In this document: positions 2,662 through 62,377 of the stretch, one piece after another
How positions within the stretch are numbered: the stretch's first letter is position 1
How the letters are laid out: each line of letters starts with the position of its first letter
IMG/VR virus record: IMGVR_UViG_3300031993_000018
Coordinates: 89,614 to 153,613 of that record
Direction: 5' to 3' (one strand)
DNA: 64,000 nt
From: a virus
Taxonomy: Duplodnaviria > Heunggongvirae > Uroviricota > Caudoviricetes
Translations under genes and position numbers: made by a program
The notes under the pieces: model-generated
Told to the model about the DNA's origin: nothing
What the model saw: only the letters and a program-made list of their open reading frames with translations
Databases searched by the model: none

Positions 2662-3792
2662 ATGCAGATTATAGACAATGTACAACTTGACTTCAGTGAT
2701 GTTCTCATTAAACCCAGGAGGTCAAGTATTGATTCGAGAAGTAAGGTAGATATTACCAGGGAGTACAAATTCAAATGGTGTCCATATAAAATCACAGGTA
2801 CTGGTATTATGCAGGCCAATATGGGAACCATAGGTAACTTTAAAGTGAGTGAGAAACTGTTGGAGAATGGTATGTTTGCTTGCCTTCACAAATATCATGA
2901 TACTGACAAACTGATTGATTTCTACAAGAAACTCATCCACAAAGGTGACGGAAGTATGAGAAGATGTCTCCTTGCAATAGGATTGAGAGATAATGGTATT
3001 GAGAAACTGAGGGAAATAAACAAGGCAACCGGTGAACAGATTGGTGTGAAGTTTGATGTTCCCAATGGATATATTCCCCAGGTAAAGGAAAGAGTCATTG
3101 AACTCAGGAAGGAGTTTCCAGATATGTTCATTATGGTTGGTAATGTGGTTACTGGTGATATCACAGAAGACCTGATTCTGTCAGGTGCAGACTGTGTTGC
3201 AGTAGGTATCGGTAATGGTGCCCAGTGTCTCACAAGAAGACAGACAGGTTGCGGAAGACCACAGTTCTCCGCTGTCGTAGAGTGTGCAGATGCAGCTCAC
3301 CAGGTCGGAGGTATGGTTTGTTCTGATGGTGGTATCACCTGTCCTGGAGATTTGGGTAAGGCATTTGGTGCCGGTGCGGATTTCATTATGATAGGAAGTC
3401 TGTTTGCAGGAACTGATGAGGCAGATGGTGAGACTGTTGAGAAGTATGTCTTCAATGGTGAGTATGACAAAATATTATATAATCCTGGTTATGTGTTTGA
3501 TCCCCATCTTGATAAGAAACAGTTCAAACAGTTCTATGGTATGAGTTCAACTCTGGCCCAGGAAAAGTTTGGTAATGGTAAACCCAGTTACCGTGCGAGT
3601 GAAGGTCGTGTAACTCTGATGCCTTATACAGGATCTGTTTGTGATGTGATTGAGGAACTCCTTGGAGGATTGAGGTCAACAATGACTTATATAGGTGCAT
3701 GGAAACTCAAGAATATTCCTAAACAGTGTGTGTTCTATAAGGTTCACAACCAACTGAACCAGACATATGAGAGATTTACAGTAGGTAAATAA
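2662..3792 (+). CDS. guaC: GMP reductase (IMPDH/GMPR family)
   Basis: N-terminal LDFSDVLIKPRRSS and the motif GADCVAVGIGNGAQCLTRRQTGCGRPQFSAVVECADAAH...SDGGI...GADFIMIGSLFAG match E. coli GuaC almost motif-for-motif, including the catalytic Cys loop. Confidence 0.85.
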   Translation: MQIIDNVQLDFSDVLIKPRRSSIDSRSKVDITREYKFKWCPYKITGTGIMQANMGTIGNFKVSEKLLENGMFACLHKYHDTDKLIDFYKKLIHKGDGSMRRCLLAIGLRDNGIEKLREINKATGEQIGVKFDVPNGYIPQVKERVIELRKEFPDMFIMVGNVVTGDITEDLILSGADCVAVGIGNGAQCLTRRQTGCGRPQFSAVVECADAAHQVGGMVCSDGGITCPGDLGKAFGAGADFIMIGSLFAGTDEADGETVEKYVFNGEYDKILYNPGYVFDPHLDKKQFKQFYGMSSTLAQEKFGNGKPSYRASEGRVTLMPYTGSVCDVIEELLGGLRSTMTYIGAWKLKNIPKQCVFYKVHNQLNQTYERFTVGK

Positions 3793-3830
3793 AAAAATGA
3801 GAGGTTGTTGCCTCTCATTTTTATTTTAAT
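3793..3830. terminator. Bidirectional intrinsic terminator between convergent genes
   Basis: aaaaaaaTGAGAGGttgttgCCTCTCAttttttatttt: a perfect 8-bp stem flanked by an A-run and a T-run. Confidence 0.6.
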
Positions 3831-4758
3831 CACCCCAGTATGTACCTGGTCTTGAACAATTAATTTCAACTTCATATTTATATCCTTTTGAGAAGTTGTC
3901 ATCATTGACATATCTCATAACAGTCTTGACATCATAAGGACTCATTGAGATGAACTCATCATATTTGACATAAGGTGCATCCATATAATCATCAGATTTC
4001 AGTGCATCTGCAATTTCCTTTGGAACATCCTGGGCAGCAATCTCCTCATAGTTGTCAGGATTTGCCTCAACATCTGCCTTGAGTGCCTCAACCCTTGCAT
4101 CATATGCTTCTTTCTTTGCCTTCTCTGCGGCAGTCCTGGCTTCCTCCTCTTCTTTTTCTATTCTTCTCTTTTCCTCCTCTTCCCTCTGCTTTTCAAGATA
4201 TTTGTCATAAAGTTCATCCACTTCCTTTGTAACTTCCTCAAGACCTGATGTCCTGATTTTGATGAACATTTCCAGAAAACCTATTGCATCATTGTTACTG
4301 CTGTAATATGATTTTGAATCTATTGTTGTGAAATAGAAGTATTTGTTTTCCTCATTCCAAAGAACATAATAGAGGTCACCCTTGTTTGTGAAGCATGATT
4401 TAACTTTCTCAATATTGGGTTCTGACAATACTTCAAGGAGTCTGTCCACTTTACCTTCTGTACCGAATGTATGTGTGTCCAAATATGCCTTACTTGGTTT
4501 ATGAGAAATATAATCTCTACCTCCACATTCATATAATTTATCACATATTTCATCAGGAACAACAGCCTTGATTTCCTTATATGCAAAATTATTAAAAGTT
4601 TTTACTTTGAAAGATATGTTTCCCAGGAACTCATAATCCTTTGAAAGGAAACCATTCTTCATCTGTGAATAACTCAGATTCCTGATGTTTCCATTTTCAA
4701 GTTCCTTTATTGAAATAGATTCCTTAAGAAAGTTGTAACTATTAAAGTTTGGTACCAT
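3826..4758 (-). CDS. Hypothetical protein with a central E/K/R-rich coiled coil (minus-strand moron)
   Basis: 310 aa ORF on the opposite strand, lying between a bidirectional terminator and a divergent promoter region. Contains an EKQREEEEKRRIEKEEEEARTAAEKAKKEA segment. Confidence 0.55.
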   Translation of the reverse strand: MVPNFNSYNFLKESISIKELENGNIRNLSYSQMKNGFLSKDYEFLGNISFKVKTFNNFAYKEIKAVVPDEICDKLYECGGRDYISHKPSKAYLDTHTFGTEGKVDRLLEVLSEPNIEKVKSCFTNKGDLYYVLWNEENKYFYFTTIDSKSYYSSNNDAIGFLEMFIKIRTSGLEEVTKEVDELYDKYLEKQREEEEKRRIEKEEEEARTAAEKAKKEAYDARVEALKADVEANPDNYEEIAAQDVPKEIADALKSDDYMDAPYVKYDEFISMSPYDVKTVMRYVNDDNFSKGYKYEVEINCSRPGTYWGD

Positions 4759-6752: not shown

Positions 6753-6794
6753 TTGAAGAAAGAGTCAGGAAAACCTGACTCTTTTGTTATTTTT

Positions 6795-7388
6795 ATGTTG
6801 TCAAAAAATGTATTTATTATGAGCAGACCAAACAAATGTATCAAGGATGAGAATGGAAAGGATCAGTGGATCTCCCGCAGTACTGTGGTAATACCTATTG
6901 TATTCAAGATAGACAATGAAACCGGAGACATCTACACTATTGTGGAACAGAGAGGTAATGCAGTAACCCATCCTGGTGAATGGTGTTGTCCCTGTGGATT
7001 TATAGACTGGGATGAGACTCTTGAAGAGGCCTGTCAGAGGGAAGTGAGGGAAGAGACCGGAATCATCCTCAATCAGGAAAACATCCATTTTATGTATGTC
7101 TATAGTGACCCCAAGAGTACCAATCAGACTGTTGACTTGTGGTATATGTGCTGGACAGATGCAGACATAGACACATCAAAGATTGAAACAAAGGAAGAGG
7201 TTATGGATGTAAGGTGGCTGAAGGTCGGTAAGTTATACCGGGGTAGTACATTGTTCATCTTCAACACATCAATCAAAAACTGTTATGGTACCTGGGCATT
7301 TAAGACACATGCCGGCAGAGTCATAGAGATGTTGAAAACAATTGTCAAAGATGCCAAGAATGGTAGAGTGGTTGAAGTAAATGATTAA
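6795..7388 (+). CDS. NUDIX hydrolase
   Basis: Nudix box [23 protein letters not shown] (Gx5Ex7REUxEExGU). The ORF-track start at 6753 is a TTG lying inside terminator hairpin 6761..6783, so the ATG at 6795 (or 6819) is preferred. Confidence 0.75.
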
Positions 7389-8882: not shown

Positions 8883-9494
8883 ATGAGTTATAAGATTAGT
8901 TTATACAGATGTCCAAAGAAGGATGTTGATTCAATAAGGGACATCACAGATGAGGAGTTTGAGGTCAATTATGACAAGATATATGCCACACTTGAAAAGG
9001 AGAAAATCAAGTATGACACCCTTGCAAATATACTTGACACTGGTATGGAGGTTAGGGAAAACCTATGCAGCAGAATCTTCACAAACAAACTGAAGTGTGA
9101 AGAGGATGTATCTTTCTACACAATATCCAAAGACCAGCTCAGGAATATCATAGAAAAAATCAGGCAGCGCACCTTTGAATATGAATGGGGAAACACCATT
9201 GATTATGACAATAAAATAATAGGTGAAAAGATACATGGAGATTTGTCCTGGGAGAAACCTACCTGGGATGAAGCCATCAAACATGTATGTCGTGAATCAA
9301 GGTTTGACGCAAGGATGTGGGCAGACTATCTGGAGAATGAAGACGGTACTAAAAGATACACCAATGTAGATACCAGTGACAATAAGTGGTGGATTACCAA
9401 TGGGTTTGGTTACAAGTACTGCATATTCAACTTTGTGCATATCCTGAAGTGTTTTGACTGGGAAAATGACTATCTTGTCGCAATCGGCGGATAA
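8883..9494 (+). CDS. Hypothetical protein
   Basis: 203 aa ORF. Confidence 0.45.
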   Translation: MSYKISLYRCPKKDVDSIRDITDEEFEVNYDKIYATLEKEKIKYDTLANILDTGMEVRENLCSRIFTNKLKCEEDVSFYTISKDQLRNIIEKIRQRTFEYEWGNTIDYDNKIIGEKIHGDLSWEKPTWDEAIKHVCRESRFDARMWADYLENEDGTKRYTNVDTSDNKWWITNGFGYKYCIFNFVHILKCFDWENDYLVAIGG

Positions 9495-9522: not shown

Positions 9523-9963
9523 ATGGGAAAATATAGAATGTACAGCTTGGTGCTGAGGCAACTAAACCCAATTCAAAAAGGTGTTCAATCAGCACACTCA
9601 ATCGTCGAATACGCAAAGAAATTCTACAAATCCACTGAATATATACAGTGGGTTAATGTGGATAAGACCATTATCATACTTGATGGTGGAACATATCCTG
9701 AATTGAAAGAATGTAGGGACACCCTCATCGATTTAGGTGTACCTTATATGGCTTTCTATGAAGAAGATCTTGGTGATGTGATGACTTCAATATCATTCCT
9801 GGTTGAAGACAAGGTCTGGGATTCGAAGTCATATCCTTCTTATGAAGATGAACTTGATGAGAATTCATCTGAATCCGAAAATCCGGTATGGCTCATTATG
9901 ATGGGTGGAAAACGGAATCTTGAATTAAGGAAATTCCTGATGAGTAAAAGACTTTCAGCATAA
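9523..9963 (+). CDS. Hypothetical protein, possibly peptidyl-tRNA hydrolase PTH2-like
   Basis: N-terminal YSLVLRQLNPIQKGVQSAHSIVEY resembles the PTH2 core K..vvR.DL.M..GK.aaQ..HA. Weak, from memory only. Confidence 0.3.
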   Translation: MGKYRMYSLVLRQLNPIQKGVQSAHSIVEYAKKFYKSTEYIQWVNVDKTIIILDGGTYPELKECRDTLIDLGVPYMAFYEEDLGDVMTSISFLVEDKVWDSKSYPSYEDELDENSSESENPVWLIMMGGKRNLELRKFLMSKRLSA

Positions 9964-10022
9964 AAGTGATGAACAAAAGTTCATCACTTTTTTGTTATAT
10001 TTACTTTATAATACTTAAGGTT

Positions 10023-10708: not shown

Positions 10709-10867
10709 ATGGATACATTTAGATACAAGGTCATTAAGACTTCTACAGAATTGAGTGAAGCGAAACTCAACGAATTCGGCCGCAGAGGATTTGAACTTGT
10801 CAGTGTTGATTCTGATGAGTATGGTCACAGATATTATTTCAAAGTAAAGGTGGAGAACAATGGGTAA
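10709..10867 (+). CDS. Small hypothetical protein (52 aa, below ORF-track cutoff)
   Basis: Hand translation gives MDTFRYKVIKTSTELSEAKLNEFGRRGFELVSVDSDEYGHRYYFKVKVENNG. It overlaps the tdk start with an ATGGGTAA arrangement. Confidence 0.35.
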   Translation: MDTFRYKVIKTSTELSEAKLNEFGRRGFELVSVDSDEYGHRYYFKVKVENNG

Positions 10868-11429
10868 ACTGACATTCACTTATGCCTGTATGGGTGCCGG
10901 CAAAACAACCCAGATGCTCACAATGTTTGACCAATATAAGAGGAGAAAGAAGAAACCCATCATTGTCAAACCCTGTATAGATGTGAGGGAAGGTGTGTTC
11001 ACTGGTTGGGGTATCACAAAGTCACGAATTACGAAGAACGAGGAACCGACCTATTACTACAAGAATCTGAAAGAAGAGTTGGAGAAACTTGACTATGGTG
11101 TTCTCTTTGTGGATGAGGTACAGTTCCTATCCAGGGAAGATGTCCTGACACTCTGTGATGTATGTGACAAAAAGGATGTTGATGTGTTCTGTTTTGGACT
11201 CAAGACTGATGTGACTGGTAATCTCTTTGAAGGGAGCAGATACCTGTTGGCCCTGGCAGATAACCTCAATGAAATCCAGACTCCCTGTGAGATAGAAGGA
11301 TGTAACTGTAATGCAACCTGTCATATCAGATATATAAATGGTGTGAGGGATACAGATGGAAGAACTGTCGCAATAGAGACGGGAGATGTGACATATAAGG
11401 CAGTGTGTAGGAAACACTGGAAGTTATAA
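10860..11429 (+). CDS. tdk: Thymidine kinase (TK1 family)
   Basis: P-loop CMGAGKTT, Mg/dT site FVDEVQFL, lasso FGLKTD, and a C-terminal zinc ribbon C..C...C..HIRY...C. Confidence 0.85.
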   Translation: MGKLTFTYACMGAGKTTQMLTMFDQYKRRKKKPIIVKPCIDVREGVFTGWGITKSRITKNEEPTYYYKNLKEELEKLDYGVLFVDEVQFLSREDVLTLCDVCDKKDVDVFCFGLKTDVTGNLFEGSRYLLALADNLNEIQTPCEIEGCNCNATCHIRYINGVRDTDGRTVAIETGDVTYKAVCRKHWKL

Positions 11430-11724
11430 AATATGTGAAAAATATCATGAAAAGTGGAGATATACTCTCCACTTTTGTTATTTTTATAATGAAAAATTAT
11501 TGAGTTATGAAAATATATGGAATTAAATGCATCCAGTCTGAATGGGATGGATGCAATGGTTGTGAAACAGACAGTTATTTGTTGGACTATTTTTTCAGCA
11601 CAAGAGAAAAAGCAGAAGAAAATCTTTTAGAAGATGTACATAGTGCTGGGTACAGAAAAAGGTATGAGGTTGCTGAAATAGACCTTGACAGATATACTAC
11701 AAGACCTGAATACCGCAGAAAGAA

Positions 11725-18039: not shown

Positions 18040-18933
18040 ATGACAAAGAAAGCGGAATATATCGGTGATAACCATCCTCAGGTCTATGGATTTGAGGTTG
18101 GTCATATCTATTTATACAGAGACTTTGGTAGAGGGGTTGAAGTCTATTACTCCAAAGAGGGTGGTACTTCCCTGGCAATGGGTTACAATATGTTCAATGC
18201 CTGCTTCAGGGGTGTGGAAGATAAAGTGTTCAAGAAGGAGGGTAGACTCCAGCACATCACTTTCACAGGTATTGATTGGAAGACTGACTTGAATGAACTG
18301 TCAGAAATCCAGAAGCAGTATCCCTATGTGGAATGGGGAGTACTTGTATCAAAAAATTGGAAGACCAATGGTAACAGGTATTTCAACCCCTCATTCATAG
18401 AAGCACTTGACAGTAACCTCAACCTATCTGCACATATGTGTGGAAGGATTGCAAGGGAAGCAGTCAGAGGAAACCTGAATCCATTCCTGGATTGGGTAAA
18501 TGGATATGGTTACATCTTCAAGAGATGTCAACTCAACATATCAGGAAGTGAGACCAACCCAGAGAAGTTTGAATACAAGGGTGATTTGTCAGATTACTTT
18601 GATGAAGTCATACTTCAACAGAAGGGAGTCAATAACTGTGACCTGTTTATGAAGAGCAAGGGAAACAGACATGTGTCCATACTCCTGGATGCATCCGGTG
18701 GAAATGGAATCAACACTGACATTGAACTCCTCAATGTCAGGTCAAAGGTTGGTTATGCTGGAGGTATCAATGCCGACAATGTGGCAGAGAAACTAACATA
18801 TCTTGAAGAGAACTGCAAGACTCCATATTGGATTGATATGGAAGCAGGTGTAAGAACCAATGACTGGTTTGACACAGAGAAGGTGAGAAAGGTTCTGGAG
18901 ATTTGTGATGGTATAATCAATAAAAAGAAATGA
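18040..18933 (+). CDS. Hypothetical protein, possibly a (beta/alpha)8 barrel with C-terminal GGI..DN phosphate-binding motif
   Basis: 297 aa ORF. The C-terminal YAGGINADNVAEKL resembles the terminal phosphate-binding loop of ribulose-phosphate-binding barrels such as ThiE/TrpF. Weak. Confidence 0.45.
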   Translation: MTKKAEYIGDNHPQVYGFEVGHIYLYRDFGRGVEVYYSKEGGTSLAMGYNMFNACFRGVEDKVFKKEGRLQHITFTGIDWKTDLNELSEIQKQYPYVEWGVLVSKNWKTNGNRYFNPSFIEALDSNLNLSAHMCGRIAREAVRGNLNPFLDWVNGYGYIFKRCQLNISGSETNPEKFEYKGDLSDYFDEVILQQKGVNNCDLFMKSKGNRHVSILLDASGGNGINTDIELLNVRSKVGYAGGINADNVAEKLTYLEENCKTPYWIDMEAGVRTNDWFDTEKVRKVLEICDGIINKKK

Positions 18934-19396: not shown

Positions 19397-19908
19397 AAGC
19401 ATTTTACTTTGGTGGTCAGTTCAGGTTCAGATACAAGGACTGTAATCCTGATTTACTGGCAAAGGATTACCGGTCACTCCTACTTGGAGACAAGAAGGAT
19501 ATATGGATTAACAGACCTGAATGGGGATATGTGGAAATCAATGATAGTGTATTATATAATGGTCCATTCTACTTCTATGACCAGATTGATTCAGAGACTG
19601 TTGTCAAGGTTGAATCAGAAAGTATAAGTGGTTCAACTGACTGTGTGTTTGTGTTGAGTAATGATGATGCACCTGGAACAGTCACAGAGATAATCCAGGC
19701 AACAATGTTAAAGAAGAATGTGTACATATTCTTTGAGAAGAAAGATTTGCCAAAGGAAGAGGTGGATACCAAATATCCTTCAAACCTTTGGTATGTAATA
19801 ACATTTGCCTGTATGAATAATAACCCCAATGTCAAATACTGTATGGGATTTGATACGTATGATGATGCAGTTAAAGCATGTGTTAACTATTTCAAAGGAG
19901 TATTATGA
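19393..19908 (+). CDS. Nucleoside 2-deoxyribosyltransferase-like protein
   Basis: N-terminal FYFGGQF resembles Lactobacillus NDT (IYFGAGWF). Acidic block DDAPGTVTEIIQA sits at the position of the catalytic-Glu motif DxGxxxExG. Confidence 0.4.
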   Translation: MKAFYFGGQFRFRYKDCNPDLLAKDYRSLLLGDKKDIWINRPEWGYVEINDSVLYNGPFYFYDQIDSETVVKVESESISGSTDCVFVLSNDDAPGTVTEIIQATMLKKNVYIFFEKKDLPKEEVDTKYPSNLWYVITFACMNNNPNVKYCMGFDTYDDAVKACVNYFKGVL

Positions 19909-20459
19909 TTGAGTTTATTTGTGCAATACTTGGTCTGGCACAGGGAGTTCTGGCCTGGCTTAACAAGAGAATCAACTGGCTTGTATATGCAGTGATGATG
20001 GTGTTTCTAATCATATTCTCTGCTGCCAACAATCTATGGGCAGATGTTTTTCAGAACTCAATATATGCAGCAATATGTCTTTATTCATACTTCATAATGT
20101 GGAACAAAGGTTCTGATTTTGACCACATATCAAAGATGAGTAATGAAAATAGATATTGGACTGTTGCGATAGTATTGTTGGCAACACTCCTGCTTGGTGT
20201 GTTGTTAAAGGGTACCAATGACCCCTTACCTGTGATTGATGCATTTACCACAGTTACTACATTTGGAGCCCTGATACTGATGTCACGACACAAGATAGAA
20301 TGTTGGATTATGTGGTTAATCAATGACATTGCTTACATTGTCCAGTACTATATGTTACCGGACCAGGCATGGTATTTGATATTCCTGTATATAATATGGA
20401 CAGGATTTGCCATTGGTTCATTGATAACTTGGAGAAAGCAAATGATAACTAATTCTTAA
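19905..20459 (+). CDS. pnuC: PnuC-family nicotinamide riboside transporter
   Basis: 184 aa multi-TM protein. N-terminal ICAILGLAQGVLAWLNKRINWLVYAVMMVF, Trp-rich helices and an overall layout resembling PnuC. Confidence 0.6.
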   Translation: MIEFICAILGLAQGVLAWLNKRINWLVYAVMMVFLIIFSAANNLWADVFQNSIYAAICLYSYFIMWNKGSDFDHISKMSNENRYWTVAIVLLATLLLGVLLKGTNDPLPVIDAFTTVTTFGALILMSRHKIECWIMWLINDIAYIVQYYMLPDQAWYLIFLYIIWTGFAIGSLITWRKQMITNS

Positions 20460-25580: not shown

Positions 25581-26258
25581 ATGAAACACTATGACAGTAT
25601 TCCCAGACTCCAGGATGATGGAACACTGAAAGGAGAGATGGTCGCCGGGTACAACAAACTTGACGGTCAGAACTTCTGTGTCACATATAATTGTAGAAAG
25701 AAAACCTGGGGACCTTATGGATCCAGGACTGTCACTGTTGATGAGAACTCTGAACAGTTTGGGGACACGGTTAGATTCTTCAACAACTCCGGTTACAAGG
25801 AGATACTTGGAAATATCATCAAGGAGTATTCAGGTAAGGGAGATGTGTTCAATGGTGTTGAAGAAGTCACATTCTTCTTTGAGTGGTATGGGTGGAACTC
25901 ATTCGCTGGCAAACACAAGGAAGGTGACAAGATGCACCTGGCACTCATTGATGTGTTCCTGAAGAAGAGAGGTTATATGGAACCCAAATCATATGAGATG
26001 TGTTTCAGAAATTGCGGAATTGAACTTCCTGATCTCATATATTCCGGACCACTCAATGCAGACATTATAGAAAAGGTTCAGAACAATGACTGGACAGACC
26101 CGGATTGTTGGAATTCCAAAGTACATGAGGGTGTTGTCTTCAAAAGAACAACACTCCTGAAAGGACAGAGGAGACCATCAGTCAAGGTGAAGACCAAATG
26201 GTGGTTGGACACTCTCCACTCACTTTATACAGAAGAGGAATGTAAGAAACTTGAGTGA
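25581..26258 (+). CDS. ATP-dependent RNA/DNA ligase-like nucleotidyltransferase (small)
   Basis: Motif I KLDGQN (KxDGxN), motif IV-like EGVVFK and downstream lysines in RPSVKVKTKWW. Confidence 0.5.
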   Translation: MKHYDSIPRLQDDGTLKGEMVAGYNKLDGQNFCVTYNCRKKTWGPYGSRTVTVDENSEQFGDTVRFFNNSGYKEILGNIIKEYSGKGDVFNGVEEVTFFFEWYGWNSFAGKHKEGDKMHLALIDVFLKKRGYMEPKSYEMCFRNCGIELPDLIYSGPLNADIIEKVQNNDWTDPDCWNSKVHEGVVFKRTTLLKGQRRPSVKVKTKWWLDTLHSLYTEEECKKLE

Positions 26259-35968: not shown

Positions 35969-37288
35969 ATGAAACTAACATTAGAGAATATTACAATCAA
36001 AGACCACAAGATTTATGACCCGGAAGGAAACTTCAGGGGAGAAATCTTGTATGAGTACATTCGTGGTTCTCATCTGTATTCAACCAATGTGGAGACATCA
36101 GATGAAGACCAGGGAGGTATCTACATTATGCCTAACAGCACCATATTGGGTCTTGGTCTTGACTATCAGAATGAGATAAAGGATAAGAGTAATGACAAGT
36201 GCATCTGGGAGTTGGGAAGATTCCTGGAACTTGCCCTGTCTTCAAACCCAACTGTCCTGGAGGCACTCTTTGTTCCTGGTGATAAGGTCATCTATGAACA
36301 TCCTGTCATCAAGGAGATCCGTTCACACCGTGATGAGTTTATCACCAAGAAGTGTTTTGCACCATTTGGAGGTTATGCTTCAAGTCAGATAAAGAAGGCT
36401 CAGGGTCAGAACAAGAAGATCCACTGGGATATTGCCCAGATGGTAAGGAAGACTCCTATGGACTTCTGTTATACCTTGAAGAACCAGGGTAGTCAGCCTA
36501 TGCAGGACTGGTTGGATGAAAGAGGACTTGATCAGAGAAACTGTGGTCTGGTCAATATTCCCAATATGCCTGATATGTTCGGTGTGTATTATGACTGGGG
36601 TCAGCACATCAGACTTGCCGGTATCACCAAGGAGTATTTCACCAATAAGGAGAATTACTACAAGGATAAGTTTATCAAGACTATGGACATGTATCTTGGA
36701 AATGAATATATCCTCCATGAGGATGGAAACCTTGAGGATGAACTTGAATATATCTGGGATCATCACTCTGAACCTCATGGTGGTTACTGTGGAATCATCT
36801 CACCCAATGAGGATTCCAACACAGTAAGGTTCTCTTCTGTTGTCAAGGGTGAGAAACCCATCTGTTATATGTCTTACAATGCCAATGCATATATATCACA
36901 TTGTAAGGAGTATAGGGAGTATGAGGACTGGAAGGAACACAGAAATCCAGCAAGGTATGAATCCAATATGGAGGGAGAGAAGTCAGGCAATGCAGATATG
37001 AAATATGACTGCAAGAATATGATGCACTGCTTCAGGTTGATGGCAATGGCAAAGGAGATTGCAGAAGGAAAGGGTGTGATCCTGGATCGCGCTGGTATTG
37101 ACAGGGAGTTTCTCCTGGATGTTAGAAACCGTAAGTATGGTTATTCTGAACTCCAGAAGAAGATGCTTGACCTGAAGGATGAGATGGATGCTGCCATTGA
37201 GAAATCTACCATCAAGGATGAGATTGATCCCCAAATGGTCAATGACCTCCTCCTGGAAGCAAGAAAACATTTTAATTCAAAAGATTAA
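35969..37288 (+). CDS. Pol-beta superfamily nucleotidyltransferase (GSHLYST...SDED motif)
   Basis: Near the N-terminus, IRGSHLYSTNVETSDEDQGG fits the GS...(S/T)D.D nucleotidyltransferase active site. The ~440 aa protein probably carries a helical substrate-binding extension. Confidence 0.5.
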   Translation: MKLTLENITIKDHKIYDPEGNFRGEILYEYIRGSHLYSTNVETSDEDQGGIYIMPNSTILGLGLDYQNEIKDKSNDKCIWELGRFLELALSSNPTVLEALFVPGDKVIYEHPVIKEIRSHRDEFITKKCFAPFGGYASSQIKKAQGQNKKIHWDIAQMVRKTPMDFCYTLKNQGSQPMQDWLDERGLDQRNCGLVNIPNMPDMFGVYYDWGQHIRLAGITKEYFTNKENYYKDKFIKTMDMYLGNEYILHEDGNLEDELEYIWDHHSEPHGGYCGIISPNEDSNTVRFSSVVKGEKPICYMSYNANAYISHCKEYREYEDWKEHRNPARYESNMEGEKSGNADMKYDCKNMMHCFRLMAMAKEIAEGKGVILDRAGIDREFLLDVRNRKYGYSELQKKMLDLKDEMDAAIEKSTIKDEIDPQMVNDLLLEARKHFNSKD

Positions 37289-38266: not shown

Positions 38267-39112
38267 ATGTATTTCAAAAACCTAAAAGAAAAGTGCGAAT
38301 ATTACCGTTCGCTTACTGATTATAAACTGATGTCAAACTCTTATGTCCTGGTGATGGTGGATGGTCACTGTTTCAGCAAGATGATCAAGAATAAGTTTGA
38401 CAAACCATTTGATGATGAGTTCATCAATATGATGAATGAGACTGCAAAGTATCTGTGTGAACAGGTACAGGGAGTTAAGTTTGCATACACACAGTCTGAT
38501 GAGATTTCACTTCTCATCACAGACTTTGACACACCAGTAACCGATGCATACTTTAGTTTCAGACTCTGTAAGATGCAGTCACTCATTGCTGCACTGGCAA
38601 CTGCCAAGTTCAACCAGTTATATGCCATCCATAACATTGGTAAGGAAGTGAGTGGTGGCAGCAACAAGATTGAACTTAAGAAGACTATTCCACTCTGTAC
38701 ATTTGACTGTAAGGTATGGACTGTTCCAAATGCAAATGACGCCTATGCCTGGTTCCTCTACAGACAGACTGACTGTATCAAGAACTCAAAGGCACAGACA
38801 GCCCAGACATATCTTCCACACAAACAGTTGGTGGGTCTGACAGCAGATGATATGATTGCCAAACTCAAGGATGAGCAGAACATTGACTGGTATGAGTTTG
38901 TCAATGGTAAGAAGTATGGAAGACTCATCAGGAAAGTGGAGACTCCTATGGAGAAAGACCTTTCCAATGGACTACACATTGAATACATAAGGAATGTATG
39001 GACACCTGTTGAGATAACAGACTTGAGAGAGGATGGGTCACAAGTGAGAGATCTGATTCCTGAACTGTTCAGACCTGGTGTTAATATAAAAGAAGAAATC
39101 ACAGAAGAATGA
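38267..39112 (+). CDS. Thg1-like protein (tRNA-His guanylyltransferase family 3'-5' nucleotidyltransferase)
   Basis: YVLVMVDGHCFSKMIKNKFDKPFDDEFINMMNETAKYL and FAYTQSDEISLLI parallel the Thg1/TLP N-terminal catalytic blocks (R.DGR.FH.F...KP.D....M...A...AYG.SDE.S..L). Confidence 0.65.
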   Translation: MYFKNLKEKCEYYRSLTDYKLMSNSYVLVMVDGHCFSKMIKNKFDKPFDDEFINMMNETAKYLCEQVQGVKFAYTQSDEISLLITDFDTPVTDAYFSFRLCKMQSLIAALATAKFNQLYAIHNIGKEVSGGSNKIELKKTIPLCTFDCKVWTVPNANDAYAWFLYRQTDCIKNSKAQTAQTYLPHKQLVGLTADDMIAKLKDEQNIDWYEFVNGKKYGRLIRKVETPMEKDLSNGLHIEYIRNVWTPVEITDLREDGSQVRDLIPELFRPGVNIKEEITEE

Positions 39113-39499: not shown

Positions 39500-40219
39500 A
39501 TGGATACTACCAATACCAATTATTATTATATGATGAGAGATGAGATAGACAGTATTGACAATCCTGAAATCAGGAGGTTTGCCAACACACTGTTGAACAG
39601 AGTCCCCGATTATTTTTTCAAGGTACCCGCATCTTCATCAGGTAAGTATCACCCAAAGAATGACCTGGGTGAGGGTGGATTGGTCAGACACTCCATCAGT
39701 GTAAAGAGAATGCTTGTACATCTCCTTGAACTGGACTGTTATAGTTTCTCTGATGATGAGAAGGATCTCCTGATTGTTGCGGCTCTGTTCCATGACTGTA
39801 TGAAGTCAGGAACACAGGAGGAGTATAAGAAAAACAACAGAACCAAATTCCTCCATCCTGTCCTGGCTGCCAACTTCATTATCACCACATCTGTGATAGA
39901 TGGGTTCAAATATGATTGGGCATTGTATATTGCTGATGCTGTGATTTCACATATGGGTCAGTGGAACACCAACAAGAGTGAGGATGGTGAACTCCCTGTC
40001 CCTGTTAATCCGGCACAAAGAATCCTCCATCTTGCAGACTATCTTGTCTCAAGAAAGGACATCAATATGGTCCTCAGGGAAGATGATGAGATTATTGACA
40101 ATGAAGTAATTGTAACCCAGGATGACAACAAGGATGAACCTGGAGATGTTCCTGAACACAAGGAGAATGGTGAGGACACCAAGACAGCACCAGGAACAAC
40201 TATGGAAATGTCAGACTGA
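39500..40219 (+). CDS. HD-domain phosphohydrolase
   Basis: H...HS...AALFHDCMK contains His-Asp metal ligands, with additional downstream His (ISHMGQW). A bidirectional terminator follows. Confidence 0.6.
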   Translation: MDTTNTNYYYMMRDEIDSIDNPEIRRFANTLLNRVPDYFFKVPASSSGKYHPKNDLGEGGLVRHSISVKRMLVHLLELDCYSFSDDEKDLLIVAALFHDCMKSGTQEEYKKNNRTKFLHPVLAANFIITTSVIDGFKYDWALYIADAVISHMGQWNTNKSEDGELPVPVNPAQRILHLADYLVSRKDINMVLREDDEIIDNEVIVTQDDNKDEPGDVPEHKENGEDTKTAPGTTMEMSD

Positions 40220-44894: not shown

Positions 44895-45197
44895 ATGACA
44901 ACTAAATCATTCAAAGAATTACTCAACAAATCCTTTGAGATAGGATTTAATGATGAGAAAAGAATCATTTGGTTTATCAATGATTGCCCCTGGCTCAATA
45001 TTGAGTGGAAAGAAGGAAATGGGTTTATCTTTGATTATAAAAAGAATACATTTGTTGCTCATATTACCATTGACAGTGTTCCAAGACTTGTGGATGCTCT
45101 AAATCTTTGTGGACTGTCAGTGTTGGCAAAACAGGTAACATATAACTTTATAGACTCCGGTAGATGTCCGGAAATAAAAGAAGACATTGTAAAATGA
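44895..45197 (+). CDS. Hypothetical protein
   Basis: 100 aa ORF. Confidence 0.4.
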   Translation: MTTKSFKELLNKSFEIGFNDEKRIIWFINDCPWLNIEWKEGNGFIFDYKKNTFVAHITIDSVPRLVDALNLCGLSVLAKQVTYNFIDSGRCPEIKEDIVK

Positions 45198-45691
45198 TAA
45201 GAAGAATAGTAGTTGACGGTAATGACGGAACAGGAAAGACTGCAACCATTAACAAGTTGAAGTTCCTATTCCCTGGTATTGAAATACAGGACAGAGGTCT
45301 GTTCTCTGAAGCGACTCTCAATGATGAGTTGTTCAAGGAGTATGAGGAAGAGAGTAAAAGGAGGGAAAATAACCCGAATTTATTTCTAAACTTTGGTATG
45401 AATATTGATAACCAACAGGTGAACAAAAACATCATGAATTTCCTGTTGAGTCTCAGTGAAATCCCAGAATGTGATACACTCTTTATCATATGTGTTGCAG
45501 ACCCGGAGGTATGTCAACAGAGAATTGCTGCCAGAGGTGACTCCATTGAGGAGGAATATCACACAATGGAAGACTTGAAAAAGTTTGACTACCGTTTCAG
45601 AATACTGTGCAGACTTGCCGATTACAAACAGAACATAATGTTGGTTGACACAACAAACAGGACAAACCCGGATACTTGTGATCTGGTATAA
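45194..45691 (+). CDS. P-loop nucleoside/nucleotide kinase (thymidylate-kinase / NRK-uridine-kinase-like)
   Basis: RIVVDGNDGTGKTATINKL (Walker A) followed by IQDRGLF. ATG 45194 is preferred over 45164, which overlaps the upstream gene. Confidence 0.5.
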   Translation: MIRRIVVDGNDGTGKTATINKLKFLFPGIEIQDRGLFSEATLNDELFKEYEEESKRRENNPNLFLNFGMNIDNQQVNKNIMNFLLSLSEIPECDTLFIICVADPEVCQQRIAARGDSIEEEYHTMEDLKKFDYRFRILCRLADYKQNIMLVDTTNRTNPDTCDLV

Positions 45692-45994: not shown

Positions 45995-46477
45995 ATGAAG
46001 GTATTTTTCCCGGGGACTTTTGATCCCTTTACAATTGGTCATGAAGACCTTGTTAAGCGTGCATTGGCAATGGGTTTTGAGGTGGTAATCGGTATTGGCA
46101 TCAATGAGAAGAAGGAACCTCTCTTCACCATAACAGAAAGACTTGATGCCATCCGTAAACATTTTGCTGGTTACACCCGTGTTGGTGTTGTTCAGTATGA
46201 GGGACTCACTGTTGATGCTGCCAGGGCAAATGGTTGCCAGGCAATCCTGAGGGGTGTCCGCTCAGTGGTAGACTTTGAGTATGAGAGAGGTCTGGCAGAC
46301 ATCAATGACAAGATTGACGGTATAGAGACCATCCTACTGGTATCCAAACTTGATCTCCAGTATGTGAGTAGCAGTTTTGTCAGAGAACTCATCCACTTTG
46401 GTCGCAACCCCAAGGATATGGTGATTGACACATTCCAACCGGATGTGGAACTCAAGGCATACTACAATAAGTCATAA
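45995..46477 (+). CDS. coaD: Phosphopantetheine adenylyltransferase (CoaD/PPAT), copy 1
   Basis: FPGTFDPFTIGHEDLV (compare E. coli YPGTFDPITNGHIDIV), ILRGVRSVVDFEYE (LIRGLRAVADFEYE), YVSSSFVRELI (FISSSLVKEV). Confidence 0.8.
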   Translation: MKVFFPGTFDPFTIGHEDLVKRALAMGFEVVIGIGINEKKEPLFTITERLDAIRKHFAGYTRVGVVQYEGLTVDAARANGCQAILRGVRSVVDFEYERGLADINDKIDGIETILLVSKLDLQYVSSSFVRELIHFGRNPKDMVIDTFQPDVELKAYYNKS

Positions 46478-59884: not shown

Positions 59885-60343
59885 ATGGGAATGACATTAT
59901 TTTATCCAGGGACTTTTGATCCCTTTACAACAGGACATGCCAACATTGTCCAGAGAGCAGTTAATATGGGTTTCAATGTTGTCATAGGTATTGGCAAGAA
60001 TTCGGGCAAGACTCCAATGTTCAGTCCTGAACAGAGACTGGAGGCAATCTCAAGTTATTATGCAGGAAATCCCAATGTGAAGGTTGTGGAATATGACGGT
60101 CTTACTGCGGATGCGGCAGCGAAACTTGCAGACGGTATATTGAGAGGTATCAGGAACGGTACCGACTTTGACTATGAGAACACAATCGCCCATGTGAACA
60201 GACAGGTGAACAGGATAGAGACTGTTTTCCTCCCTGCAATCGAAGGATACTTCTTTGTCAGCAGCACTCTTGTCAAGGAACTGTACAGAAATGGGGAGGA
60301 TGTTTCAAATTATATCATAGACACTTTCAAACCTTATCTGTAA
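59885..60343 (+). CDS. coaD: Phosphopantetheine adenylyltransferase (CoaD/PPAT), copy 2
   Basis: YPGTFDPFTTGHANIV, ILRGIRNGTDFDYE, FVSSTLVKEL. About 55-60 % identical to copy 1. Confidence 0.75.
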   Translation: MGMTLFYPGTFDPFTTGHANIVQRAVNMGFNVVIGIGKNSGKTPMFSPEQRLEAISSYYAGNPNVKVVEYDGLTADAAAKLADGILRGIRNGTDFDYENTIAHVNRQVNRIETVFLPAIEGYFFVSSTLVKELYRNGEDVSNYIIDTFKPYL

Positions 60344-61693: not shown

Positions 61694-62377
61694 ATGAAGA
61701 ATATAGAAGACATAAACACCAAATATCCAAGGACATATCATCTGCCTTGGTCACCCGGAGCCACTTCTGATGACAAGAAGTTGTCCTCAGACTGGTTTGA
61801 TGCAGATGAATGGAAAGGAAAGGAGATTGTGATCACTGAGAAGCTTGACGGTGAGAACACCGCCTTCTGGAATGGTGATGTCTTCAGCAGAAGTCACTCG
61901 GTTCCCACCAGGTCACCCTGGTCAAGAAACCTTTGGGACAAAGATGGACTCCTGTGGGTGATAAAAGACAAGATCTCCCCGGAAGAGATTGTCTATGGTG
62001 AGAACCTTTATGGTGAACACAGCATACACTATGACAGACTTCCGGCGTATTTCTTCGCCTTCGCCTGCCGCAGGGAAAATCAGTGGTGGAGTTGGGATGA
62101 TGTTGTTCTGATGGCGGATATTCTGAATGTACCGACAGTTCCTGTCCTGTGGAGAGGAAGGTTGGAGTCAGAGTCTGAACTGAAGGAGATGATCTCCAGG
62201 TTTATGTCCCAACCATCGGCATTCGGTGATACAAAGGAAGGAGTGGTGATAAGAAAGGTCGAAGGATTTGACAACAAGGACTTCTCCAAGAATGTCGCCA
62301 AGTATGTGAGGGAAAATCATGTCCAGACTGACCAACACTGGACAAAGAACTGGAAAAGAGCAAAGTTAATAGTTTGA
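61694..62377 (+). CDS. ATP-dependent RNA ligase-like nucleotidyltransferase
   Basis: N-terminal KYPRTYHL, motif I KLDGEN, motif IV EGVVIRK, plus downstream Lys residues. Confidence 0.55.
   Translation: MKNIEDINTKYPRTYHLPWSPGATSDDKKLSSDWFDADEWKGKEIVITEKLDGENTAFWNGDVFSRSHSVPTRSPWSRNLWDKDGLLWVIKDKISPEEIVYGENLYGEHSIHYDRLPAYFFAFACRRENQWWSWDDVVLMADILNVPTVPVLWRGRLESESELKEMISRFMSQPSAFGDTKEGVVIRKVEGFDNKDFSKNVAKYVRENHVQTDQHWTKNWKRAKLIV

Follow-up and report, generated by a model that had tools for sequence, protein, structure and literature searches.

A class-1 GMP reductase gene of an uncultured jumbo-phage clade and its proposed role in shifting guanylate towards adenylate supply

Why would a phage encode an enzyme that turns guanosine monophosphate (GMP) into inosine monophosphate (IMP)? 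The question is raised by an open reading frame (ORF) at positions 2662-3792 of a stretch of tailed-phage DNA from IMG/VR record IMGVR_UViG_3300031993_000018 (positions 89,614 to 153,613 of that record), whose full 64,000 nucleotides are called the window here. An earlier note on this DNA had read the ORF as a GMP reductase (GMPR), rare in phages, which together with other salvage genes would rebalance nucleotide pools. Three questions follow: (i) whether the enzyme is what it appears to be; (ii) whether the gene belongs to the phage in any lasting sense; and (iii) what it might be for. At the level of sequence, the ORF is confirmed as a genuine class-1 (GuaC/human-type) GMP reductase with an intact active site. 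The reading that we favour, with rather more confidence than doubt, is that it encodes an active reductase dependent on NADPH (reduced nicotinamide adenine dinucleotide phosphate), a core and independently transcribed gene of its phage clade that shifts supply from G to A.

The enzyme and its active site

The features of the gene itself are as follows.

2662-3792, + strand: GMP reductase, class 1 (GuaC/GMPR type), 376 amino acids, an uninterrupted ORF
3226-3228, + strand: codon of active-site residue Cys189
3232-3234, + strand: codon of active-site residue Thr191
3325-3327, + strand: codon of active-site residue Asp222
3601-3603, + strand: codon of active-site residue Glu314
3445-3510, + strand: clade-specific beta-hairpin extension of the finger, residues 262-283, from alignments and the structural model

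The start codon is the right one, because the N-terminus of the product pairs with Salmonella GuaC from residue 1 in the alignment. The Pfam family PF00478, which covers both IMP dehydrogenase (IMPDH) and GMPR, matches at 1.1e-58 over residues 9-260 and a second stretch. Among NCBIfam models the top one is NF003470 'GMP reductase', which matches over its full length with 393.6 bits; the IMP dehydrogenase model TIGR01302 reaches 161.6 bits, and models of Gram-positive-type GMPRs about 145-166 bits. The closest solved structures by sequence are human GMPR2 and GMPR1 (4e-89 to 2e-86), with IMPDH catalytic domains at 1e-41 and weaker. Comparison of folds gives the same ranking: human GMPR1/2 make up the top 15 matches to the AlphaFold model (E 2e-32, template-modelling scores of 0.72-0.84), ahead of IMPDH catalytic domains at about 1e-23. 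On the identity of the enzyme, then, the earlier note was right.

The phage protein has in common with class-1 GMPRs (GuaC of Escherichia coli and Salmonella, human GMPR1/2; EC 1.7.1.7) a (beta/alpha)8 barrel without a CBS subdomain, there being no room for a CBS pair in 376 residues, as well as the catalytic loop G-x-G-x-G-x-x-C-x-T-R, the YGMSS and YRASEG motifs, and the required Cys, Thr and Glu. It is identical to Salmonella GuaC at about 40% of positions and to human GMPR at 40-42%. The differences are a 22-residue hairpin extension of the finger, a Leu directly after the catalytic Cys, a position occupied by Thr in the compared GuaC sequences, a score slightly under the curated cut-off, and the fact that the gene is phage-borne.

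For the active site, the query and 120 database relatives (121 phage-clade sequences) were aligned with Salmonella GuaC. Cys189, Thr191, Asp222, Arg311 and Glu314 correspond to Cys186, Thr188, Asp219, Arg286 and Glu289 of the E. coli and Salmonella enzymes, and all five are unchanged in 121/121 clade sequences; the inactive catalytic cysteine that the earlier note had named as grounds for abandoning its idea was thus looked for and not found. Mutagenesis of E. coli GuaC has shown that Cys186, Thr188 and Glu289 are required (PMC2525682). The residue directly after the catalytic Cys varies within the clade (L, R, S, I, V), in contrast to the Thr of the compared reference GuaC.

In the AlphaFold model (mean predicted local distance difference test score, pLDDT, 75.8) the barrel is predicted confidently. 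The finger extension is modelled as two 15-residue strands, 258-272 and 277-291, with pLDDT of about 88, and the insertion sits at the tip of the finger, distant from the active site. According to the alignments it is found in neither E. coli/Salmonella GuaC nor human GMPR nor the GMPRs of other phages, and both its length (15-30 residues) and its sequence vary across the clade.

Conservation, origin and transcription of the gene

Clustering of GMPR relatives at 90% identity gave at least 119 protein clusters, 67-94% identical to the window's GMPR. The metagenomic contigs that carry them reach about 420 kb, and it is from the size of these contigs that we take the clade to consist of jumbo phages. 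An identical protein is found on a 121-kb contig of Joint Genome Institute sample 3300028887 and on a contig of the European Nucleotide Archive, and one clade contig (L049) bears the label of a human gut metagenome assembly. Related loci were also fetched from metagenomes by way of the neighbouring Dda-like helicase, which serves as a marker independent of the reductase. The GMPR gene is present in all 11 of the distinct clade contigs with enough sequence upstream of the helicase, which answers the earlier note's proposal to search for guaC in related phages. Pairwise ratios of nonsynonymous to synonymous substitution (dN/dS) against ten orthologues are 0.06-0.14, with dS near or past saturation, and the gene is under strong purifying selection. 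It is most likely a core gene of an uncultured, widespread jumbo-phage clade of rumen and gut.

Outside this clade the gene is seldom met in phages. A megablast search with the gene and 25 kb of the window gave no match in a collection of 50,697 phage records, and there is hence no close sequenced relative among them. Any protein of the IMPDH/GMPR family was matched in 71 of these records, and only about five isolates (four distinct phages) have a full-length class-1 GMPR, so the rarity claimed in the earlier note is borne out. The four are the Xanthomonas phages XacN1 and Xoo-sp13, the Stenotrophomonas phage RAS14 and the Caulobacter phage Cr30, all of them large (156-385 kb). Their GMPRs are 35-39% identical to that of the window and lack the finger extension, and the neighbourhoods of their genes are unlike the window's. 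In a neighbour-joining tree they stand apart from the clade on two branches, one with XacN1, Xoo-sp13 and RAS14 and one with Cr30. Because these proteins lack the extension and branch separately, they were probably acquired independently of the clade's enzyme.

A scan of 185,579 species-representative genomes for cellular homologues identified as closest relatives about 30 chromosomal guaC genes of the gut Alphaproteobacteria 'Candidatus Enterousia', which are 49-52% identical and form the sister group of the phage clade in the neighbour-joining tree. Their products share the finger extension in a shorter form (about 14 residues). At the one locus checked the gene order is accC, accB, mreB, guaC, secB, mltA, ruvC, an ordinary chromosomal setting, and no homologue of the other window genes was found in the 'Ca. 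Enterousia' guaC loci. Two further homologues, about 72-73% identical to the window's GMPR, come from metagenome-assembled genomes labelled as bacterial: CAMEUD010000010.1 (L057; 'Clostridia', 29% G+C), with a phage-type GMPR and an adjacent phage thymidine kinase, and JBGVNW010000068.1 (L085; a 360-kb contig, 'Bacilli'), where the phage-type gene is split. Both look like jumbo-phage contigs mis-binned into bacterial genomes. The GMPR gene has a G+C content of 41%, and its G+C, overall and at third codon positions, resembles that of its neighbours. As the phage collection gave no match at the DNA level and cellular homologues reach about 50% identity at best, the gene is no recent host capture; it goes back to an old exchange with the 'Ca. 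Enterousia' lineage, in one direction or the other.

The gene is also set off from its surroundings by putative transcription signals, and similar signals flank the unit that ends with a thymidine kinase gene.

2600-2627, + strand: terminator-like hairpin closing the upstream unit, directly before the promoter-like motif of the GMPR gene
2626-2638, + strand: promoter-like motif TTTTGTTATATTT, 24 nucleotides upstream of the GMPR start codon
3793-3822, no strand assigned: bidirectional terminator-like hairpin that separates the GMPR stop codon from the convergent ORF 3826-4758 (- strand)
9990-10002, + strand: promoter-like motif at the head of the unit ending with the thymidine kinase gene
11450-11476, no strand assigned: terminator-like hairpin after the thymidine kinase gene, followed by a copy of the promoter-like motif at 11473-11485

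The window has 12 copies of the motif in its general form, TTTTGTTAT[A/T]TTT, where 0.74 would be expected, and 11 of them are on the + strand (starting at 713, 2626, 4761, 6782, 9990, 11473, 13407, 42589, 48414, 58396 and 59233). Most copies stand about 15-50 nucleotides ahead of a start codon and are usually preceded by a T-tailed hairpin. The motif matches neither the sigma-70 nor the Bacteroidota consensus, and is probably the promoter of one temporal class. The GMPR gene would then form a single-gene transcription unit and would share its promoter class with an M42 peptidase gene, the unit of the NUDIX and helicase genes, and the unit ending with the thymidine kinase. The hairpin and motif upstream of the GMPR gene are kept in 10 of 12 orthologous loci, with differing stem sequences. 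Known promoter types are not enriched in the window: sigma-70-like promoters number 39 against 43.6 expected, and the Bacteroidota -7 motif TAnnTTTG has 60 occurrences against 55, which is uninformative on the host.

The ORF that converges on the GMPR gene and has the terminator in common with it (3826-4758, 310 amino acids) is the only sizeable reverse-strand gene hereabouts. It gives only weak coiled-coil-like matches, and is a variable insert that some relatives have (L002, L032 and L050) and others lack.

Possible roles of the reductase in infection

The analysis shows the family of the enzyme, its intact active site and fold, its conservation under purifying selection and its regulatory architecture; that it is active, on which substrate, which way the flux runs and what the phage gains from it are what we infer. 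The reaction would be GMP + NADPH -> IMP + NH3 + NADP+. By the chemistry of the family, Cys189 would attack C2 of GMP, Thr191 and Glu314 would help ammonia to depart, and NADPH would reduce the resulting thioimidate. During infection the guanylate pool would be drained to IMP, which the host's adenylosuccinate synthetase and lyase (PurA and PurB) would take to adenosine monophosphate (AMP), so that more A becomes available for a genome of 39% G+C. In such a scheme the reductase would be the purine counterpart of the route through deoxycytidine monophosphate (dCMP) deaminase to thymidylate, and a TK1-type thymidine kinase would add thymidine salvage for the supply of T. To our knowledge, GMPR is the only enzymatic exit from guanylates to IMP. 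A route from G to A would be needed, besides that from C to T, by any phage that makes A+T-rich DNA out of a G+C-rich host. The window is indeed A+T-rich, as the earlier note had it, with a G+C content of 39.4%.

The four isolated phages with a full-length class-1 GMPR offer a comparison. In the four phages the sampled regions have 50, 40, 43 and 38% G+C, and their Xanthomonas, Stenotrophomonas and Caulobacter hosts have about 64-67%. The rebalancing idea plausibly fits all four, since the G+C of the sampled regions is far below that of the hosts. A pyrimidine arm can be found in these phages as well: XacN1 and Xoo-sp13 encode a deoxycytidylate deaminase, Cr30 has a CMP/dCMP deaminase near its GMPR gene, and thymidylate synthase is annotated in Xoo-sp13 and RAS14. 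Genes for the synthesis and interconversion of purines and pyrimidines are carried by huge phages generally (PMC7162821).

The earlier note had placed the reductase in a salvage module together with a thymidine kinase, a NUDIX hydrolase and a deoxyribosyltransferase-like gene. The genes of the window that bear on this proposal are the following.

10860-11429, + strand: thymidine kinase, TK1-like (type II), 189 amino acids; the start overlaps the preceding ORF by 8 nucleotides
6819-7388 (or from 6753), + strand: NUDIX hydrolase (PF00293, 6e-18), with a promoter-like motif ahead of it at 6782-6794
45164-45691, + strand: candidate thymidine monophosphate (dTMP) kinase or other P-loop kinase (TIGR00041, 27.7 against 83 bits; a 'faint' Pfam Thymidylate_kin match)

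The reductase, the thymidine kinase and the NUDIX hydrolase are real genes. The thymidine kinase matches PF00265 at 7.8e-34 (117.5 bits against a gathering threshold of 20.6, profile positions 1-176 of 176) and phrog_592 at 5e-51. With TK1-like kinases such as that of Thermotoga maritima (PDB 2orw) and those of phrog_592 it has in common the P-loop (GAGKT), the DE-x-QF motif (DEVQF) and the Cys/His cluster of the C-terminal lasso (CEIEGC, CRKH). It is a divergent member, with E 2e-14 to the best solved structure, which is the Thermotoga kinase, and its top NCBIfam model, NF003300, gives 147.2 bits, below the equivalog cut-off of 195. The kinase gene is found in 12 of the 13 clade loci that reach far enough, the exception being L008. 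In L003 and L057, which branch off deepest among the relatives, it adjoins the GMPR gene, 0.3-0.6 kb downstream, which suggests that the two genes were linked in the ancestor; a scan of these two neighbourhoods for further nucleotide-metabolism genes gave only the thymidine kinase, a Dam methylase, Thg1 and lysis enzymes. The NUDIX gene lies 3-4 kb downstream of the GMPR gene throughout the clade. Its product has only weak NudI, MutT and NadM-Nudix matches among NCBIfam models, and that it could supply GMP from guanosine triphosphate (GTP) is speculation. The candidate at 45164-45691 may tentatively be counted as part of the thymidine route.

The fourth member could not be recovered: no deoxyribosyltransferase-like gene appears in the Pfam records of the called window genes, in PHROG and Pfam scans of 30 ORFs, or in a scan for the catalytic motif. 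The nearest candidate, the 146-residue product of 9523-9963, is a weakly PTH2-like 'hydrolase' (phrog_3668) and was rejected. In XacN1, an unrelated jumbo phage, a homologue (ORF401, L011 7965-8582; E 3e-12) follows the GMPR gene at a distance of two genes downstream; given its PTH2-type look, and since the two genes are not adjacent in Xoo-sp13, this proximity is probably a coincidence.

A number of points weigh against an active reductase that shifts supply from G to A. The first concern the enzyme. The score of 393.6 bits misses the curated equivalog cut-off of NF003470 (397) by 3.4 bits, and TIGR01305 scores the protein at 329 against a cut-off of 492. The TIGR01305 match consists of two stretches broken at the finger extension, and because it splits there the extension probably costs part of the score and contributes to the shortfall below the NF003470 cut-off. 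The catalytic loop and the flap are modelled at pLDDT below 50; both are mobile elements in the IMPDH/GMPR family. Other points concern the setting. The thymidine kinase gene lies 7 kb downstream of the GMPR gene in the window and belongs to another transcription unit, and it is missing from L008; the module of the earlier note stands only in part. No purA or purB was seen in the 64-kb window, and the route to AMP would for this reason depend on the host. The composition argument would weaken if the host of the clade had a G+C content near 39%, and clade relatives span 32-46% G+C. The presumed hosts of pelagimyophages are A+T-rich, and a GMPR in these phages does not, for that reason, fit a pure composition argument. 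Such a gene has been reported in deep-ocean pelagimyophages (PMC7029224). Finally, a literature search for studies of the activity, substrate or expression of phage GMPRs returned passing mentions only.

There are several other scenarios. One, which we consider tentative and on the unlikely side, extends the proposal: the reductase might be the purine arm of a general nucleotide re-editing by large A+T-shifted phages, working together with host PurA and PurB, perhaps fed by the co-regulated NUDIX enzyme (GTP to GMP) and running parallel to the long-known C-to-T arm of dCMP deaminase, thymidylate synthase and thymidine kinase, and the extended-finger enzyme might be uncoupled from host regulation or accept deoxyguanosine monophosphate (dGMP).

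It is also conceivable, but unlikely, that a genuine GMPR serves to lower guanine nucleotides, i.e., GTP and guanosine penta- and tetraphosphate ((p)ppGpp), whether to reprogramme the host or to starve a defence system that depends on guanine nucleotides. The enzymatic evidence is identical for this purpose and for adenylate supply. The gene's place among small, early-looking genes with a promoter-like motif of its own would suit it, and so would the cofactor-related genes of the region (PnuC and two copies of CoaD), which can be read as a general investment in metabolite pools. However, the substrate of GMPR is GMP and not directly GTP, and supply accounts for the link with A+T-shifted phages better than depletion does. 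Nor did a PADLOC scan point to defence or counter-defence in the neighbourhood: the GMPR gave no hit, and the nine neighbours scanned with it gave nothing meaningful.

Quite unlikely, in our estimate, is a non-canonical substrate, such as dGMP from degraded host DNA, which would pass through deoxyinosine to deoxyadenosine monophosphate without ribonucleotide reductase, or a step in the making of a modified purine. In this case the extended finger would mark a shifted subfamily. It is common to the clade and its 'Ca. Enterousia' sister group and is not in canonical GMPRs; the scores under the curated equivalog cut-offs and the variable residue after the catalytic Cys would also be in keeping with such a shift. 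The equivalent of Asp222 contacts the 2'- and 3'-hydroxyls of the ribose in IMPDH/GMPR structures. Against a changed substrate, this residue and all motifs that contact the base and the phosphate are invariant, the insertion is remote from the active site in the model, and the sister group consists of ordinary chromosomal guaC genes between mreB and secB. There are, in addition, no purZ, dpdA or like base-modification genes among the Pfam annotations of the window.

Very improbable is an IMP dehydrogenase (GuaB-like) without CBS domains, which would make xanthosine monophosphate and so raise guanylates. The Pfam domain is common to both enzymes, and related 'fractured genes' from metagenomes have been labelled IMPDH (PMC2677866), yet GMPR models are ahead of IMPDH models by more than 200 bits, and the top matches, by sequence as well as by fold, are without exception GMPRs. 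Between YGMSS and YRASEG the protein has as many residues as Salmonella GuaC and aligns with it free of gaps, so the spacing from YGMSS to the catalytic Glu is that of GuaC and the longer flap of IMPDH would not fit. The alignment indicates a flap of the short GMPR type without the Arg-Tyr dyad that activates water in IMPDH; GMPR is known to lack Arg418, the water-activating residue of IMPDH (PMC2525682).

Finally, that the gene is a passenger, recently captured from a host and without a role in the phage, is hardly credible: the general rarity of the gene in phages, and nothing beyond that, speaks for it, and as far as computation reaches it is refuted by presence in 11/11 testable clade contigs at dN/dS of about 0.1, by nearest cellular homologues of about 50% identity, by a G+C content like that of the neighbours and by the conserved upstream architecture, which also disposes of the unconserved, very recent host transfer that the earlier note had allowed for.

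Rebalancing towards adenylate is thus the role that we prefer. Genes with which phages rebalance pyrimidines are textbook material, whereas the purine equivalent is annotated in few phage genomes, and our literature search found no dedicated study of it. With the comparative data the idea becomes concrete enough for an inexpensive test. The enzymology itself is not new; what the window's GMPR adds, with a small structural variation, is a further case of a known but rarely discussed kind of phage auxiliary gene.

Inteins in orthologues, host hints and other genes of the window

Some GMPR orthologues of the clade (P0097, P0114, P0116 and P0118) carry a mini-intein of about 143 residues (C...VVHN) directly before the catalytic Cys, which is thereby the +1 residue of the intein; the window's GMPR itself is without an intein. 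At one locus (L005 7947-10564) the gene is 'fractured': an N-extein and N-intein run to a stop codon and are followed by a free-standing ORF of 332 amino acids at 8887, and the C-terminal half consists of a C-intein (MKIEF...IIVHN) and a C-extein that begins CVCRTR. The gene of L085 is likewise split, at residue 188. Ocean and lake metagenomes have yielded 'fractured' IMPDH genes with split inteins (Dassa et al. 2009, PMC2677866). L005 and L085 have the arrangement of those genes (N-extein and N-intein, free ORF, C-intein and C-extein), and other relatives in the clade carry the contiguous mini-intein at the same insertion site. Because the split genes of the clade resemble them, the published fractured 'IMPDH' genes may perhaps be phage genes of the GMPR type. 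Natural inteins in both contiguous and split form at a catalytic cysteine are of possible interest to protein engineers.

There are conflicting hints as to the host. Most start codons in the window have A-rich sequence ahead of them and no Shine-Dalgarno sequence. A DUF3575 gene (L006 4126-5154) lies on the same contig about 6 kb upstream of the first base of the window; this family is typical of outer-membrane proteins of Bacteroidota and so a possible clue to the host. Together, the starts without Shine-Dalgarno sequences and the DUF3575 gene hint at a host among the Bacteroidota, whereas the nearest homologues of the GMPR are alphaproteobacterial.

Other genes of the window belong to cofactor and RNA metabolism.

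45995-46477 and 59885-60343: two copies of pantetheine-phosphate adenylyltransferase (CoaD), both above the curated cut-off of 103.3 bits (139.5 and 137.1)
19905-20459: PnuC-type nicotinamide riboside transporter, 51 bits against a cut-off of 42.45
18040-18933: protein of 297 amino acids next to the PnuC gene, with a weak match to phosphoribosylanthranilate isomerase (PRAI)
38267-39112: Thg1-like tRNA-His guanylyltransferase, of an RNA repair and modification set
35969-37288: RlaP nucleotidyltransferase, of the same set
25581-26258 and 61694-62377: two RNA ligases, of the same set
39500-40219: HD-domain protein, of the same set
1149-1237: tRNA-Ser (anticodon GCT), inside the listed ORF 1027-1332

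PnuC, the PRAI-like protein and the NUDIX hydrolase may point to salvage related to nicotinamide adenine dinucleotide, and the CoaD copies are genes of coenzyme A synthesis in a phage. Thg1 also adjoins the pair of GMPR and thymidine kinase genes in L003. With the tRNA-Ser (GCT) gene lying inside it, the ORF at 1027-1332 is probably not a gene.

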